A DNA stretch of 64,000 nucleotides from Chloroflexota bacterium (GTDB lineage: Bacteria > Chloroflexota > UBA11872 > VXOZ01). The notes beneath the pieces are model-generated. The model was not told the origin of the DNA, made no database searches, and saw only the letters and a list, made by a program, of their open reading frames with translations. This document shows, piece after piece, positions 5,342-63,236 of this stretch. Each line of letters begins with the position of its first letter. The first letter of the stretch is position 1. The translations under genes were made by a program, and so were the position numbers. The stretch covers positions 448,001 through 512,000 of the forward strand of contig OZ244922.1 of assembly GCA_965221905.1 (NCBI GenBank). The letters run 5' to 3'.

Positions 5342-5374
5342 CCGTTCGTGCTGAGCCTGTCGAAGTACCAACGG
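5342..5374 (-). repeat. REP-like hairpin family A (33 bp)
   Basis: CCGTTCGTGCTGAGCCTGTCGAAGTACCAACGG; same family as the copies flanking the GIY-YIG gene. Confidence 0.9.
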
Positions 5375-26049: not shown

Positions 26050-26168
26050 CGTCACTCCCGCGAAAGCGGGAGTCTAGGGGTATTGAGAAAGTGGATTCCG
26101 CGGTCGTGAAACGGGGTGGAAGTCTACTTGTATTGAGAAGATGGATTCCCGCTTTCGCGGGAATGACG
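26050..26168. repeat. CGTC-type REP family B inverted doublet (GTCAYTCCCGCGAAAGCGGGARTCYA)
   Basis: Copies at 26050-26076(+) and 26142-26168(-), with a degenerate internal copy; others at 33814-33840, 35064-35089, 53045-53070, 63169-63194 and 63210-63236. Confidence 0.9.
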
Positions 26169-33733: not shown

Positions 33734-33813
33734 TTGCCGCGGATTAGTCGATCCCATGAGAGCGAGGGAATTGAACGAGTGGGAAGGGCGATTAGGGCCA
33801 ACTGGAGAGAAGA

Positions 33814-33891
33814 TGGATTCCCGCTTGCGCGGGAATGACGGATTGACAAGCCCACTTCTTAGTAGCGCGGGGGCTTGTCCCCCGCTCTTGG
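33814..33891. repeat. Family B REP (33814-33840) plus GTAG-type family D REP (33862-33891)
   Basis: GTAGCGCGGGGGCTTGTCCCCCGCTCTTGG is identical in inverse orientation at 37182-37211; related copy at 61012-61036. Confidence 0.88.
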
Positions 33892-39527: not shown

Positions 39528-39755
39528 GGAGCGTTCCCTTACGCAGTCGGCGCCTTGCGCGTCCCAATTGTCCGGCGCTTGTCCGACCGCCGTTGAAACC
39601 GTCTGCAAAACGCGGAGGTTACCATCATTCTACGCTGCATGAATCTCCGCAACAACTCAAGCAAAAGGGCGTAACAGGACTTTGCGCAGTCTGCGCATGA
39701 GGTGCGAAGCGCCTAAGTCTCTTCCAGCCGGCCCGGGTGGCCGTACGTACTTCGG

Positions 39756-39781
39756 CCCTTCGTCAAGCTCAGCACGAACGG
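39756..39781 (+). repeat. Degenerate family A hairpin
   Basis: CCCTTCGTCAAGCTCAGCACGAACGG. Confidence 0.7.
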
Positions 39782-41276: not shown

Positions 41277-42104
41277 ATGTTCGATCAAGCATTCAAGGAT
41301 TCCTTTGAGCAGAGCGGGTATACGGTAGCGCGGGGATTGTTCTCACCGGAAGAGGTTGCAGCGCTCACCGATCACTATATGTACTTGCGGCAAAACGGCA
41401 CGTACAAAGGGGACGCTGCCGGCGTGGATGTGCCGAATGGCGACCCAGCGGCCGATCCCTTGAGGAAGTTCCCTCGCATGATCCACATGCATCGCTGGGA
41501 CGACCTTAGTCTGAAATGGATGTTGGACCCGCGCTTTCGCGAGGGCCTGGCGGCGCTCTTGGGAGGAGACCCGTACGCCGTACAGAGCATGATCTACTTC
41601 AAGCCGCCGGGCGCGCGGGGACAGGCTCTGCACCAGGACCAGTTCTACTTGCAGGTGCAACCCGGCACCTGCATGGCCGCCTGGCTCGCGCTCGACGACT
41701 GCGACGAAGAGAATGGCTGTTTGCAGGTGGTGCCGGGCAGCCACATGTTGCCGGAGCTTTGCACAGAGGAGGCGGACACGGCCCAGAGCTTCACGGACGT
41801 CACCGTGCCTCTGCCGGAGCAAGTGCAGACCGCGCCGGTACTCATGGATGCCGGCGACGTGCTTTTCTTCAACGGCCAGTTGATCCACGGCAGCTTTCCA
41901 AACGCGACCGCCGACCGCTTTCGCCGCTCGCTCATCGGCCACTACATCATGGGCAGCGCCGAAAAGGTATCGAAATACTACCATCCGGTGCTGCGCATGG
42001 ATGGTAGCGTTGTAGGCCTTGGCACCAGCGAGCGGGGCGGCCCCTGCGGCGTGTGGGTGGAGGAAGACGGCCGGGCGGTAGTAGAAATGGCCGTCGGCGA
42101 GTAG
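41277..42104 (+). CDS. Phytanoyl-CoA dioxygenase (PhyH) family protein
   Basis: HQD, WLALDD..ENGCL..VPGSH, HGS..N..R. Confidence 0.93.
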   Translation: MFDQAFKDSFEQSGYTVARGLFSPEEVAALTDHYMYLRQNGTYKGDAAGVDVPNGDPAADPLRKFPRMIHMHRWDDLSLKWMLDPRFREGLAALLGGDPYAVQSMIYFKPPGARGQALHQDQFYLQVQPGTCMAAWLALDDCDEENGCLQVVPGSHMLPELCTEEADTAQSFTDVTVPLPEQVQTAPVLMDAGDVLFFNGQLIHGSFPNATADRFRRSLIGHYIMGSAEKVSKYYHPVLRMDGSVVGLGTSERGGPCGVWVEEDGRAVVEMAVGE

Positions 42105-42262
42105 GCGAGGCGCGTTCTATTGGCTGGGCCGTCTGGTATGGGCGAAGTGAGTGCGGCAACTCACTTCGGCCCAATATTGGCGTGACGGAAAACGGTTTAG
42201 AGCGCGATTGGCTCTCTCGTATGGCGGGTGGCAGCAAAAAAGAGTTCATTCCAGCGAATCTC

Positions 42263-42530
42263 CCGCTCACCCTTCGACAGGCTCAGGGCGAACGGCTTCG
42301 TATCTATTCCGATTTTTGGATTGCTTTTCTATTAAAAGCCAGTCTCTATCATTGGCTAGTTTAGAGAAAAGGGCGAAGTACACCTTCATCTAACTGCTAG
42401 TCTGGAGAAAAGGGCGAAATACACCTTGGTCAATTGTCTTGCCCTAATTGTTACGTGGGAGTATTCGTCCGGCATTTGCACTTGGGAGACAGCCTAACCG
42501 TTCGTGCTGAGCCTGTCGAAGCATGAACGG
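42263..42530. repeat. Family A inverted doublet downstream of the GIY-YIG gene, enclosing a 32-bp direct repeat
   Basis: Hairpins at 42263-42295(+) and 42498-42530(-); direct repeat at 42355-42386 and 42396-42427 (29/32 identical). Confidence 0.88.
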
Positions 42531-42555
42531 AAACGTGAGCGACCCTGGTGCTACA

Positions 42556-42861
42556 CTAATCGGACTCTTGTTCCGGGGAAGAACCGCGACTTCTCGCCAA
42601 CCGCGAAATCTCCTCCCAATCCCCTTGGCACAGTGCCTCTTTCTTCTTGCGTGACCAGCCTTTAATCTGTCTCTCTAGGGTAATTGCTTCCTCACGGCTA
42701 GGGAATTCCGCGGCGTAGACCAGTTGAACTGGTCGCCTTGTGGTCGTGTAGGAATCACCTGATCCAGAAACATGCTGGGCAAGGCGGGCCTCTAGGTCAA
42801 CCGAATGACCGACGTAGTAAGAATCATCAGCGCACTTGAGCATGTAGAGCCAGAAAGCCAT
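42556..42861 (-). CDS. Small stand-alone GIY-YIG nuclease
   Basis: WLYMLKCADDSYYVG..RLAQH..YT..RRPV.LVY..A..LE.QIKGWSRKKKEAL. Confidence 0.92.
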   Translation of the reverse strand: MAFWLYMLKCADDSYYVGHSVDLEARLAQHVSGSGDSYTTTRRPVQLVYAAEFPSREEAITLERQIKGWSRKKKEALCQGDWEEISRLARSRGSSPEQESD

Positions 42862-42913
42862 TACTACTCACTTTAAATAGAATCCCGGTAGTGATCTCAA
42901 GCTTCCAAGAACG

Positions 42914-43098
42914 CCGTTTACCCTTCGACAGGCTCAGGGCGAACGGCTTGTCTGGTTCCAGCCATTCATTCTCTGGTTCCAGCTATTCTTTCTAACTGTA
43001 ATACGAGAGAGAAAAAAACAAGATTCGGTGTCTCTCCCAAGGCAGGAGTCCATGCCGTTCTGAGGTGGCTACGCAATGTTCCTGCGAAGCATGAACGG
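42914..43098. repeat. Family A inverted doublet upstream of the GIY-YIG gene
   Basis: Hairpin at 42914-42946(+) and degenerate copy at 43055-43098(-); 21-bp tandem duplication at 42951-42992. Confidence 0.8.
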
Positions 43099-43130
43099 AT
43101 CACCAATGATGCCTACATTGCGCCTGCGCC

Positions 43131-44039
43131 CTACTGTGATCCCAGTTGCAGGCTGGCCCAAATTAGGGCCACGTAGAACATGAACGGACCGGTGAAGAGC
43201 AAGCTATCGATGCGGTCCAGGATGCCGCCGTGGCCGGGGATGAGGGTGCCGGATTCCTTAGTGCCCGCCCCGCGCTTGAGGAGCGATTCCACAAGATCGC
43301 CGAGTTGCGCTACTACCGCAACGCCAAGACCGACGAGGCCGGCAAGAATCGGGCTAAGCGGGAATGGGGTGAATTGTGCGTAGAGCGCCGCGACCATGAC
43401 CGCGATGAACGCGCCGCCAAGCGTGCCTTCCAGGGTCTTGCCCGTACTGAGATGTTGGAAGATGCGGCGGCGGCCGATGCTCTTCCCTACAAGATACGCT
43501 CCCGTATCGTAGGCCCAAGTGACGACAAGGGCGAAAATCAGCCACAGTTCTCCCCGCACATAGATGTAGTCGCGGAGGGCGACTGTGTGTCCTAGCAGCC
43601 AGCCGATGTACATCGCACCGGCGACCGCCATCGCCCAGCCCGTAAATGTTTGGGCATGATTGCTCGACCGGGGCAGCAGCAGTACCCAAAGCGTGCAGAG
43701 CACGATCACCGTAAAGAGGAGTGGCGGCAGTACAACCAGTTCCGCGTAACCCGCCCAGATTAAGCTGTAGGGCCATAGGAAGAAGCCGAGCGCTAGCGCA
43801 CCGGCAGTGATGCGGTGTACGGCAAGCCCCATGCTGCGTACGAGGTGGATATACTCCCACAGGGCAAGGCCGCCGAACGCCAGCATGCCGAACAGCAGCC
43901 AGGGATTGCCAAAATATGCTAACGCAATCAAGAGGGGCGCGTAGACAACCGAGGAAAGAGCGCGAGTCGCAAATTCCTGCCAGGGAGCACGTTGTGATAC
44001 GCGGCTTGATTCGCCGCGCTTACTGTTTTGCTTTGCCAT
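43131..44039 (-). CDS. cdsA: Phosphatidate cytidylyltransferase
   Basis: DTGAY..G, KTLEG, GDLVESLLKR..K.SG..IPGHGGILDRIDS; ATG at 44039 preferred. Confidence 0.95.
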   Translation of the reverse strand: MAKQNSKRGESSRVSQRAPWQEFATRALSSVVYAPLLIALAYFGNPWLLFGMLAFGGLALWEYIHLVRSMGLAVHRITAGALALGFFLWPYSLIWAGYAELVVLPPLLFTVIVLCTLWVLLLPRSSNHAQTFTGWAMAVAGAMYIGWLLGHTVALRDYIYVRGELWLIFALVVTWAYDTGAYLVGKSIGRRRIFQHLSTGKTLEGTLGGAFIAVMVAALYAQFTPFPLSPILAGLVGLGVAVVAQLGDLVESLLKRGAGTKESGTLIPGHGGILDRIDSLLFTGPFMFYVALIWASLQLGSQ

Positions 44040-44856
44040 TCTGGCTGTTAGTGAGGCCGTCGCTTCCAGCGAGACCGTCGCTGGGAGCGAGGCCGCCGCT
44101 AGGAGCGAGGCCGCCGAACTTGCGTTCGCGGCGGCTGTAATTCGCGAGAGCGGCGTAGAACTCTTTGCGCCCAAAGTCGGGCCAGAAGACCTGCGCGGCG
44201 TAGTATTCGGCGTACGCAGCTTGCCAGAGCAGGAAGTTGGATAGCCGCATCTCGCCGGCCGTGCGGATCACGAGATCAGGGTCGGGAAGATTACGAGTGT
44301 AGAGGTGCTGCGCGATTGTTTCTTCCGAAATGAGGGAAGCAGGCACCCCTTTTGCAACGATCTCCCGGACGGCATCGACGATTTCACCGCGACCGCCGTA
44401 GTTGAAGCCGAAGTTGATTGTTAGGCGATCATTGTCGCGCGTCGCCTCCTGAAGCTGATCAATGGCAACCTGCAACGATGAAGGTACGGCGTCACGCCGT
44501 CCGATGGAGCGGACCTGAATCTGGTTTTCGACGATCGCACCTTGTTCACGCTCGATTGTTTCTTCGAGCAGTGTCATGAGTCCGGTGACTTCCTCTTCGG
44601 GACGCGCCCAATTCTCCGTCGAAAAGGCATAGAGCGTGAGGATCTCGACACCGAAGTCAATTGCTGCCTCAGCCACCTCGCGCACGCAGCGCGCACCGGC
44701 GCGGTGGCCCTCCAAGCGCGGGAGGCCGCGTTGCGCAGCCCAACGCCCATTGCCATCCATCACGATGCCAACGTGAACGGGCGTAATGGGCAGAGGCGGG
44801 AAAGTCTCTGCTTCTTCGGGAGCTCTCTCCAGCGATTTAGGTGGGATTGGCTCCAT
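44020..44856 (-). CDS. uppS: Undecaprenyl diphosphate synthase
   Basis: MDGNGRWA, FSTENW, RTAGEMRLSNFLLWQ. Confidence 0.97.
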   Translation of the reverse strand: MEPIPPKSLERAPEEAETFPPLPITPVHVGIVMDGNGRWAAQRGLPRLEGHRAGARCVREVAEAAIDFGVEILTLYAFSTENWARPEEEVTGLMTLLEETIEREQGAIVENQIQVRSIGRRDAVPSSLQVAIDQLQEATRDNDRLTINFGFNYGGRGEIVDAVREIVAKGVPASLISEETIAQHLYTRNLPDPDLVIRTAGEMRLSNFLLWQAAYAEYYAAQVFWPDFGRKEFYAALANYSRRERKFGGLAPSGGLAPSDGLAGSDGLTNSQNGKAKQ

Positions 44857-50296: not shown

Positions 50297-50333
50297 AATT
50301 CGTCACAGAGACATATTGTTCTGTGCAAACCTG

Positions 50334-50455
50334 CCCTTCGACAGGCTCAGGGCGAACGGAAAAGGAAGAGACGCAAACGGAACAGCTAGGAATGTGAATG
50401 GAAGGGGAAAGTATCCGTTCGTGCTGAGTGCTGCGCGAAGCCCTTGTCGAAGCAC
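50334..50455. repeat. Family A inverted doublet with three degenerate 21-bp units in between
   Basis: 50334-50359(+) and interrupted copy at 50415-50455(-); units at 50352, 50373 and 50394. Confidence 0.8.
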
Positions 50456-50706
50456 ATGTCGGCATGTCGAGTTGCACTATTAGATAGCTTCTAGCATGAA
50501 TAGACACCTAGAATTTCGACGGTTTCGTATTGAGGGATAATTTAGCGAGACGTAATGGCTCTACATTACGGGGGCTGGCGCAGGTTGCAAACCTGCGCTA
50601 CCGTCGCCCTTATGCATTGAGACAGGTGTGTTGGGCTGCCAGAACCCTCTCATGGAAACTATCTGGGGAGGCAATGCAATTTCAGTCGTAGCGTGGGAAT
50701 TAGAAC

Positions 50707-63116: not shown

Positions 63117-63168
63117 CGATGGGATAACGCAGCGAGTCGTTACCGATAGTGCCCGGCTCTCGTTGCCT

Positions 63169-63236
63169 GTCACTCCGGCGAAAGCCGGAGTCTAGGAAAA
63201 TTGCGCAGATGGATTCCCGCAGTCGCTGGAATGACG
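63169..63236. repeat. Family B CGTC-type REP inverted doublet
   Basis: GTCACTCCGGCGAAAGCCGGAGTCTA and TGGATTCCCGCAGTCGCTGGAATGACG. Confidence 0.85.

Follow-up and report, generated by a model that had tools for sequence, protein, structure and literature searches.

A 64,000-nt window of a Chloroflexota genome (positions 448001-512000 of the single-contig, 3.52-Mb genome G000, contig C1) contains a cassette in which the gene of a small GIY-YIG nuclease lies between two inverted copies of a 33-bp hairpin. Gene and hairpins recur together in loci from many phyla, in fixed orientation and at fixed spacing, and the cassette, together with its hairpins, probably moves or once moved as one piece. 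By analogy with nucleases of the Ssn family, the encoded protein probably recognises its own hairpin in single-stranded DNA (ssDNA), on the strand whose loop reads TGTC (the TGTC strand), and nicks it by a conserved CCGTTCG tag.

The nuclease gene (Table 1) lies between two genes that converge on it, encoding a PhyH-family dioxygenase (41277-42104, +) and a CTP_transf_1 (PF01148) cytidylyltransferase (43131-44174, -), the latter being the cdsA of a preliminary description of this DNA. That description had placed an inner hairpin 25 bp past the stop codon and an inverted one 52 bp before the start codon, each paired with an outer copy. This layout is borne out, with both outer copies at the positions named, and the further copies listed at 5342, 39756 and 50334/50415 are present as well, one of them degenerate and one interrupted (Table 1). 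The left outer hairpin is 94% identical to the inner copy at 42914 over 36 nt, and the arms of the left doublet (42263-42295 and 42498-42530) are 85% complementary. The right outer hairpin is orthologous to a lone hairpin at the same site in the related genomes G004 and G005; G004 has no other hairpin here, so that this copy predates the cassette block. The spacers of both doublets and the 158-bp left part of the block are unique in the genome, and a search for a larger repeated unit was therefore negative. A search of 42000-43300 against Rfam gave no match at E<=1, and a scan of 42200-43150 returned neither promoters nor terminators.

As to the meaning of the arrangement, the preliminary description was right in part: the link between gene and hairpin holds across phyla and a mobile unit fits the data, but spread of the repeat driven by the gene is not supported. 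The window itself contributes little to this assessment. A 24-nt version of the hairpin has five matches in the window at up to three mismatches, against none in each of 100 shuffles, but the local cluster is unremarkable for G000. The 15-nt core CTTCGACAGGCTCAG occurs in this genome 126 times exactly, 246 times at up to one mismatch and 319 times at up to two; 14 other clusters hold at least four cores in 900 bp, and about ten ordinary genes (220-440 aa) are also bracketed by inverted hairpin copies. The significance of the cassette therefore rests on cross-genome data.

For this comparison, we collected 80 homologue loci from public genomes, at 53-66% identity and under nine phylum labels, each with 3 kb of flanking DNA on either side. 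A core in '-' orientation lies within 150 bp upstream of the gene in 48 of them, a '+' core lies at +260 to +450 from the gene start in 53, and 41 have cores both upstream and at the 3' end; 15 have no core within 3 kb. The density of cores near the gene is 2.97/kb versus 0.18/kb in the remainder of the flanks, a 16-fold enrichment with fixed orientation and spacing, as the preliminary description had expected of homologues. Visual inspection of the 19 loci that lack a core close to the gene revealed in each of them a loop variant (CCGTTCG..TGAG..TCGAA) on one or both sides, for example CCTGAGGTATCGAAGG or loops with a nested insert. In 8 of 30 aligned homologues, the protein ends in ...PSTSSG(RT), which is the hairpin translated, and therefore the hairpin abuts the 3' end of the gene in distant organisms. 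Loop variants also follow nuclease clades, as in the case of three loci (L072, L079 and L103) that share a variant and form one clade with 96% support in the Shimodaira-Hasegawa-like approximate likelihood ratio test (SH-aLRT). However, this agreement between nuclease phylogeny and repeat type is expected from linkage and is not independent functional evidence.

In two of the genomes, those of Thauera terpenica and Thiocapsa imhoffii, there are exactly two exact cores each. The two cores of T. terpenica bracket the nuclease gene; both cores of T. imhoffii lie just downstream of the gene, and a copy with two mismatches lies upstream. The hairpins are therefore part of the cassette. Where three relatives have 9, 9, 12 or 18 bp (four sites, flanks 85-92% identical) and a fourth relative has 123 bp, T. 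terpenica has 353 bp. This insert begins and ends at the outer edges of the two hairpins (L086 2612-2964), with the terminal inverted repeats inside the inserted segment, as in a pair of insertion sequence and MITE (miniature inverted-repeat transposable element). The empty site is the ATGA stop/start overlap of two genes and has no hairpin. At the occupied site, the upstream frame continues across the first hairpin (..VRPEPVEG..) and stops at a TGA overlapping the nuclease ATG, and the upstream protein has gained a hairpin-encoded C-terminal tail; the nuclease frame continues across the other hairpin and stops at a TGA overlapping the ATG that has been recreated for the downstream gene. The N-terminus of the downstream product (..ISQQELESYLWGAAVLLRG) is reminiscent of a type I methylase subunit.

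A similar picture emerges within the genus, where 6 of 17 genomes carry an orthologue (at least 66% identity), in three genomic contexts, with the two inner hairpins at the same distances in all six. The context between the PhyH gene and cdsA is common to G005 and G003. G013 has the same flanks, but between them the cassette, as delimited by the inner hairpins (window ~42495-42973), runs in the opposite direction. In G001 and G009 it is found between other genes, and at the orthologous position of the G001 cassette, G000 has a gene-less '-'/'+' hairpin doublet. The G001 copy carries TAA at the invariant Tyr38 codon, and several more copies with internal stops occur in the phylum. The spacer between the PhyH gene and cdsA measures 7-16 bp without a hairpin in seven genomes, 85-102 bp with one hairpin in four, and 754-1048 bp with the gene in another four. 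Empty sites, for which the preliminary description had recommended a search in relatives, are thus at hand in seven congeners, and its suggestion that gene plus hairpins form a minimal mobile unit fits these clean insertion/empty-site pairs in Thauera and in the genus.

The hairpin was analysed on 101 distinct copies that flank the gene. On the TGTC strand, it reads 5'-CCGTTCG-(3-4 covarying bp)-TGAGCYTGTCGAA-(3-4 bp)-YGAACGG, with the consensus 5'-CCGTTCG-NNN-T GAGCYTGTCGA A-NNN-YGAACGG, and consists of a short covarying stem, the conserved 13-nt loop TGAGCYTGTCGAA and the CCGTTCG tag. The inner stem pairs covary (U-A 48/C-G 44; C-G 79/G-C 18; C-G 89/G-C 10); two-sided changes fill 111 cells versus 29 in shuffles, a value that none of 500 shuffles reaches, and pairing drops from 81% to 36-49% when the partner is slid by 1-3 columns. 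Depending on the pair, 22-47 of the 101 copies lack pairing in the outer 3' arm, and yet conservation of the 5' CCGTTCG stays at 90% or more, so that this heptamer behaves like a tag that gives the element its orientation. One stem position is G-T in 42 of the copies, and G-T pairs exist on the TGTC strand only. Consistently, folding with DNA parameters gives -8.3 to -10.2 kcal/mol for the TGTC strand of the three good copies beside the gene and -4.0 to -7.9 kcal/mol for the complement (-10.2 versus -7.9 kcal/mol for the copy at 42498-42530). The TGTC strand is the coding strand upstream of the gene and the non-coding strand downstream, and the CCGTTCG tag therefore lies on the outside at both ends of the cassette.

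In the 101-aa protein, the Pfam domain GIY-YIG (PF01541) covers residues 3-74 (E 4e-19), and no other Pfam domain is found. The predicted GIY-YIG fold rests on this match and on the sequence match to a solved structure, the UPF0213 protein BH0048 (PDB 1zg2). With the family profile, 1zg2 scores 81.7 bits (E 3.7e-22, positions 1-90) and the UPF0213 protein EF2693 (PDB 1ywl) 67.6 bits (E 9.1e-18), and these two are the best matches of the family among solved structures. The residues of catalytic type (Y6, Y16, R26, H30 and E63) are unchanged across the 30 aligned homologues, and the ratio of nonsynonymous to synonymous substitution (dN/dS) against congeners is 0.10-0.20; the protein is therefore under purifying selection. 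Judged from its sequence, it is best explained as a small, catalytically intact nuclease of a UPF0213-like branch. Homologues are plentiful (1089 of 1093 scored candidates at E<=1e-3). A search of NCBIfam with the protein gave no family, Pfam offers no model more specific than the general PF01541, and a protein atlas returned only generic GIY-YIG clusters. The gene is single-copy in G000, which has only one further small GIY-YIG gene (1200977-1201213), with no hairpin core within 1.5 kb.

Taken together, these data suggest a scheme in which a cassette of 0.35-0.45 kb, ordered [tag-hairpin]-gene-[hairpin-tag], would insert as a unit and would then be lost, inverted or inactivated in different lineages. 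The nuclease would bind the hairpin on the TGTC strand of ssDNA and place a nick beside the CCGTTCG tag, which marks the cassette's outer boundary on both strands. Joining would presumably be left to repair- or replication-dependent copying, which is a natural guess. Solo hairpins may be gene-less derivatives of the cassette, or independent copies that outlast the gene, and with the doublets they would have multiplied to a few hundred copies in the genus; the inversion in G013 and the doublet at the G001 site would fit recombination between hairpins. The nuclease may also take part when the cassette or solo hairpins are copied. Taken to its full extent, the scheme describes an autonomous mobile element of an undescribed class, a GIY-YIG nickase of ~100 aa that recognises its own terminal hairpins in ssDNA, mobilises itself and MITE- or REPIN-like solo hairpins through joining by host replication or repair, and slips into the stop/start overlaps of operons without breaking them. 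We put this extended version forward tentatively, as less likely than not.

Several observations weigh against a mobile, self-mobilising cassette. GIY-YIG nucleases have no known strand-joining activity with which a cassette could be pasted, and beyond the GIY-YIG domain Pfam reveals no known transposase class in the cassette. No target-site duplication is visible at the Thauera junction, a single event, and in G000 the gene has a copy number of one. Resolution of the protein tree is poor, with 49 of 84 inner branches open; phylum labels are partly clustered in it, which suggests horizontal transfer of the gene, short of proof. Among metagenome contigs (compared at a likeness of 88), joints across the cassette are weak or repeat-caused, and no excision product can be claimed from them: contigs in X5 and X7 connect 42105 with 43061/43063, as in the empty allele of G004, but these joints are weak because their sides are shorter than 30 nt, and joints such as 42525->42922 and 42295->42498 are explained by hairpin pairs elsewhere. 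Finally, hairpin numbers do not track the presence of the gene. Exact cores number 214, 194, 206, 62, 172 and 268 in the six congeners with the gene (mean 186) and 45, 158, 172, 165, 189, 153, 152, 140, 100, 136 and 123 in the 11 in which it was not found (mean 139), counts that are given without a test statistic and come from relatives that are not independent. Across 301 genomes of the phylum, all 18 with a strong match to the protein (E<=1e-28) have at least four cores, but so do 40 of the other 283, including genomes with 226, 152 and 141 copies. The gene therefore implies hairpins, and hairpins persist without the gene. The comparison of repeat count with gene presence, proposed in the preliminary description, thus shows no tracking of the one by the other, and its idea that the nuclease drives the spread of the repeat finds no support.

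The closest published precedent is the SsnA nuclease of Neisseria meningitidis, a 94-aa single-domain GIY-YIG protein (CDD cd10448, GIY-YIG_unchar_3) that binds the NTS hairpin repeat as ssDNA only, its cut lying upstream of the repeat (Chenal et al, 2025, Nat Commun 16:2388, PMC11893778). Three homologues likewise bind and cut their own flanking repeats as ssDNA, so the statement of the preliminary description that it knew of no experimentally characterised GIY-YIG/REP pair was out of date. In the same source, 71% of SsnA homologues have at least one repeat of the SRM type nearby and 42% have SRMs on both sides; the NTS-ssnA-NTS arrangement is likened by its authors to insertion sequences and to RAYT/REP systems, and mobility is raised there as a hypothesis. 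Our literature searches found no papers for GIY-YIG with repetitive extragenic palindromic (REP), nothing relevant for GIY-YIG with REPIN, RAYT, MITE, COG2827 or YhbQ, and organelle and phage papers only for GIY-YIG with palindromic repeats, intergenic or mobile; a search for UPF0213, YhbQ and Ssn gave this article as the sole relevant one. The terms UPF0213, cd10456 (the CDD model of UPF0213), YhbQ and COG2827 are absent from its text. Hairpin repeats around UPF0213 genes, whose products share size and domain with this family, were not reported in the literature found.

The likeness to Ssn is considerable: the nuclease is a single GIY-YIG domain of similar length (101 aa here, ~95-100 aa in typical Ssn genes and about 90-150 aa as the range of the family), the gene lies between inverted hairpins that are dispersed in the genome, the layout resembles an insertion sequence, the distribution across phyla is wide, and on both sides of both genes an oriented, non-palindromic tag is distal and the hairpin proximal. 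The hairpins differ: NTS has a small loop on a long stem and carries the tag CGTC, whereas here the tag is CCGTTCG, the stem short and the loop 13 nt in length. The present cassette offers clean insertion/empty-site pairs where PMC11893778 raises Ssn mobility as a hypothesis.

Could the family then simply be a divergent member of Ssn (cd10448) with a divergent SRM? Besides the layout, this would account for the match between the profile of this family and that of NTS-flanked SsnA-like proteins (hhalign, 99.4% probability, 28% identity) and for a YES for Thauera terpenica in the cd10448 column (psiblast E<1e-10) of the 'ssnA homolog' table, its other entries there being NO, NO and, for a score >100, NO (PMC11893778). 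We nevertheless regard it as unlikely. As a proxy for N. meningitidis SsnA we used L124, which, like L125, is an NTS-flanked SsnA-like gene matching peptides encoded by the mutagenesis primers in PMC11893778. The 101-aa protein is only 29% identical to its product over 69 of 97 aa (pairwise E 7e-8) and on this proxy falls outside the published criterion for ssnA homology (blastp/tblastn E<1e-10, 75% cover). Likewise, Thiocapsa imhoffii, which has a single small GIY-YIG gene, a member of this family, is scored NO in all four 'ssnA homolog' columns of Supplementary Data 4, and its SRM count there is not enriched (52 versus 54; PMC11893778). The two groups are set apart in the protein tree by a long branch with full support, and the SsnA-like profile gives 1zg2 and 1ywl only 30.8 and 20.3 bits, far from the 81.7 bits that 1zg2 reaches with the family profile.

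The repeats are separate as well. The published SRM pattern, HGTCWYN(0-2)YYVSBRHN(0-5)WNVSBRGN(0-2)RNCYNB (PMC11893778), has no match within 1.5 kb of the GIY-YIG gene, and none of its 155 matches in G000 overlaps any of the 319 cores. These 155 hits, as against ~26 in shuffles, represent a canonical SRM family of G000, of which CGTCATTCCGGCGAAAGCCGGAATCCAT is the commonest form and which is nearly identical to the Neisseria NTS. The second small GIY-YIG gene of G000 is an SsnA-like paralogue; its nearest SRM is 8.4 kb away, and therefore the SsnA-like/SRM pair is not physically linked in this genome. On these sequence comparisons, we file the family as a putative sister branch of Ssn that would work like Ssn, and not as an established member.

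A different reading, to which we also give a low probability, follows the proposal made for Neisseria SsnA, namely that the nuclease has been domesticated by its host, where it would restrict or modulate recombination of hairpin-bearing ssDNA, the hairpins multiplying by other means and the cassette being immobile here. A single-copy gene under purifying selection would suit such a role, as would the independence of hairpin abundance from the gene and the bracketing of ordinary genes by hairpins, which has its parallel in NTS in Neisseria (PMC11893778). Against it stand the limited occurrence of the gene (6 of 17 congeners, three contexts, one inverted copy and one pseudogene), the recurrence of copies with internal stops in the phylum, the low GC content of the block (Table 1) and the clean Thauera insertion.

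Free-standing GIY-YIG homing endonucleases, such as the phage Seg proteins and I-TevI, form selfish-looking insertions between conserved genes and leave empty alleles. By this model, the hairpins would be independent, REP-like elements, and the nuclease gene a parasite of homing type that cuts doublets and is copied in by repair with two hairpins as homology arms. The gene-less '-'/'+' doublet in G000 at the site of the G001 cassette is what such a target might look like; the cassette is always within hairpin clusters in the genus, hairpins persist without the gene, and the G013 inversion fits recombination between inverted hairpins. Yet the Thauera empty sites have no hairpin, and the Thauera and Thiocapsa genomes contain no other exact copy, so that no pre-existing target is seen. 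The protein also differs from homing endonucleases in that it has no separate DNA-binding domain and comes with terminal hairpins of its own, of which copies without the gene occur as well. We consider this explanation rather improbable. Chance juxtaposition of a repeat and an unrelated small gene, to which the abundance of the hairpin and its many clusters in G000 might lend appeal, is refuted by the 16-fold local enrichment in fixed orientation and spacing at 80 loci from many phyla and by genomes that have only the two gene-adjacent copies.

The interpretation that we prefer, a cassette that moved with its hairpins and whose nuclease probably reads them, also invites comparison with RAYT/REP systems, in which a single-copy nuclease gene is likewise flanked by an inverted hairpin with hundreds of solo and doublet copies. 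There, the enzyme is of the HUH/Y1 type, whereas the cassette encodes a GIY-YIG protein and its hairpin has no GTAG tag; to our knowledge, the GIY-YIG fold cannot form the covalent intermediate by which HUH/Y1 enzymes rejoin DNA. RAYT genes are stably inherited, while the cassette gene is patchy, in line with its occurrence in the congeners, and appears to move between sites and phyla. G000 itself has three PF01797 Y1-transposase hits, of which two are flanked by GTAG-type REPs of their own (117 and 150 copies in G000 at up to two mismatches, in arrays at each RAYT) and the third by none. None of the three is flanked by the studied hairpin, the finding that the preliminary description had named as a counter-indication. 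Thus, this 3.5-Mb genome has four nuclease/repeat systems, namely the studied cassette, the canonical Ssn/SRM pair and two RAYT/REP systems.

Table 1. Coordinates of the cassette, its hairpins and other repeats and mobile elements (window positions, except where G000 is given)
Feature	Position	Strand	Basis
GIY-YIG nuclease gene, 101 aa, single domain	42556..42861	-	open reading frame list, PF01541 match
Inner hairpin, 33 bp, 25 bp past the stop	42498..42530	+ (TGTC strand, CCGTTCGTGC TGAGCCTGTCGAA GCATGAACGG)	sequence, DNA fold
Inner hairpin, inverted copy, 52 bp upstream of the ATG	42914..42946	- (TGTC strand = coding)	sequence, fold
Outer hairpin, doublet partner of 42498-42530	42263..42295	- (TGTC strand)	sequence, fold
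Outer hairpin, interrupted by extra loop bases, arms CCGTTC...GAACGG	43055..43098	+	sequence, synteny, fold
Left-doublet spacer; 32-bp direct repeat x2 (42355-42386, 42396-42427); unique in genome	42296..42497	.	
Right-doublet spacer; 21-bp tandem pair 42948-42989; unique in genome	42947..43054	.	
PhyH-cdsA spacer, 1026 bp, 51.6% GC versus 61-62% in flanking genes	42105..43130	.	
Solo hairpin, kept at the same site in G005	5342..5374	+	
Degenerate solo hairpin just 3' of the DUF3604 gene stop; kept in G004 and G005	39749..39781	-	
Half hairpin 50327-50359 and loop-interrupted copy 50415-50459; present in G004	50327..50459	.	
SRM copies	26050-26077, 26141-26168, 33813-33840, 63168-63195		
REP_A	33862, 37195		
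REP_B	23114, 31701, 35156, 50578, 58060		
RAYT with own GTAG-type REP GTAGCGCGGGGGCTTGTCCCCCG	G000 3327899-3328216		
RAYT with own GTAG-type REP GGTAGCGCAGGTTGCAAACCTGCG	G000 1522544-1522732		
IS110-family elements	G000:C1 217762-218930, 637184-, 1011500-, 1301709-, 2344700-2345861, 2938480-		

Throughout G000, 51% of the cores are outside long open frames, which span 87% of the genome by a crude frame-based proxy. Hairpin orientation shows a modest replichore bias (right, +70/-51; left, +43/-68; Fisher p 0.004), the cumulative GC skew having its minimum near 70 kb and its maximum near 2.02 Mb. Comparison of the window with the syntenic regions of G004 and G005 revealed no clean solo-hairpin insertion with readable boundaries, as differing spacers were wholly replaced. 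Two apparent extra cores in G005, at up to three mismatches, proved to be chance matches inside genes. The spacer with the hairpins at 50327-50459 has other sequence in its place in G005: the segment 50297-50702 is common to G004, and G005 has a 204-bp replacement that carries an SRM-like repeat. By this wholesale replacement, spacers between conserved genes turn over as blocks.

The hairpin is in turn the target of another element. Outside the window, six identical IS110-family elements of ~1.17 kb (DEDD_Tnp_IS110, PF01548, 78 bits each) lie inside hairpin loops of G000, the insertion point being exactly behind ...GGCTCAG of the loop; the IS110-family element thus uses the studied hairpin as its target. 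A second small palindrome (AGCCTGCCCCGTACTCGATACGGGGGCGAACGG and longer forms) is nested in the hairpin at the same loop position (G000, e.g. 102267, 670674, 813638, 1024335, 1691853 and 3000705), and 15 half-hairpin units stand in tandem at a 26-bp period at G000 2566069-2566447 (CCCTTCGACAAGCTCAGGGCGAACGG).

The cassette would thus represent a second branch of mini GIY-YIG nucleases, nearest to UPF0213, a family with solved structures and unknown function, that is packaged as in Ssn, with a hairpin that looks unrelated and keeps nearly the same bases throughout many phyla. The cassette provides a concrete, testable substrate, with the loop TGAGCYTGTCGAA and the tag CCGTTCG on one strand only, and may add a new specificity to the toolbox of ssDNA-cutting enzymes. 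The insertion/empty-site pairs make it directly testable if, and by what route, a nuclease without joining activity moves DNA, and the coexistence of four nuclease/repeat systems and a hairpin-targeting IS110 element in G000 offers a useful natural comparison.

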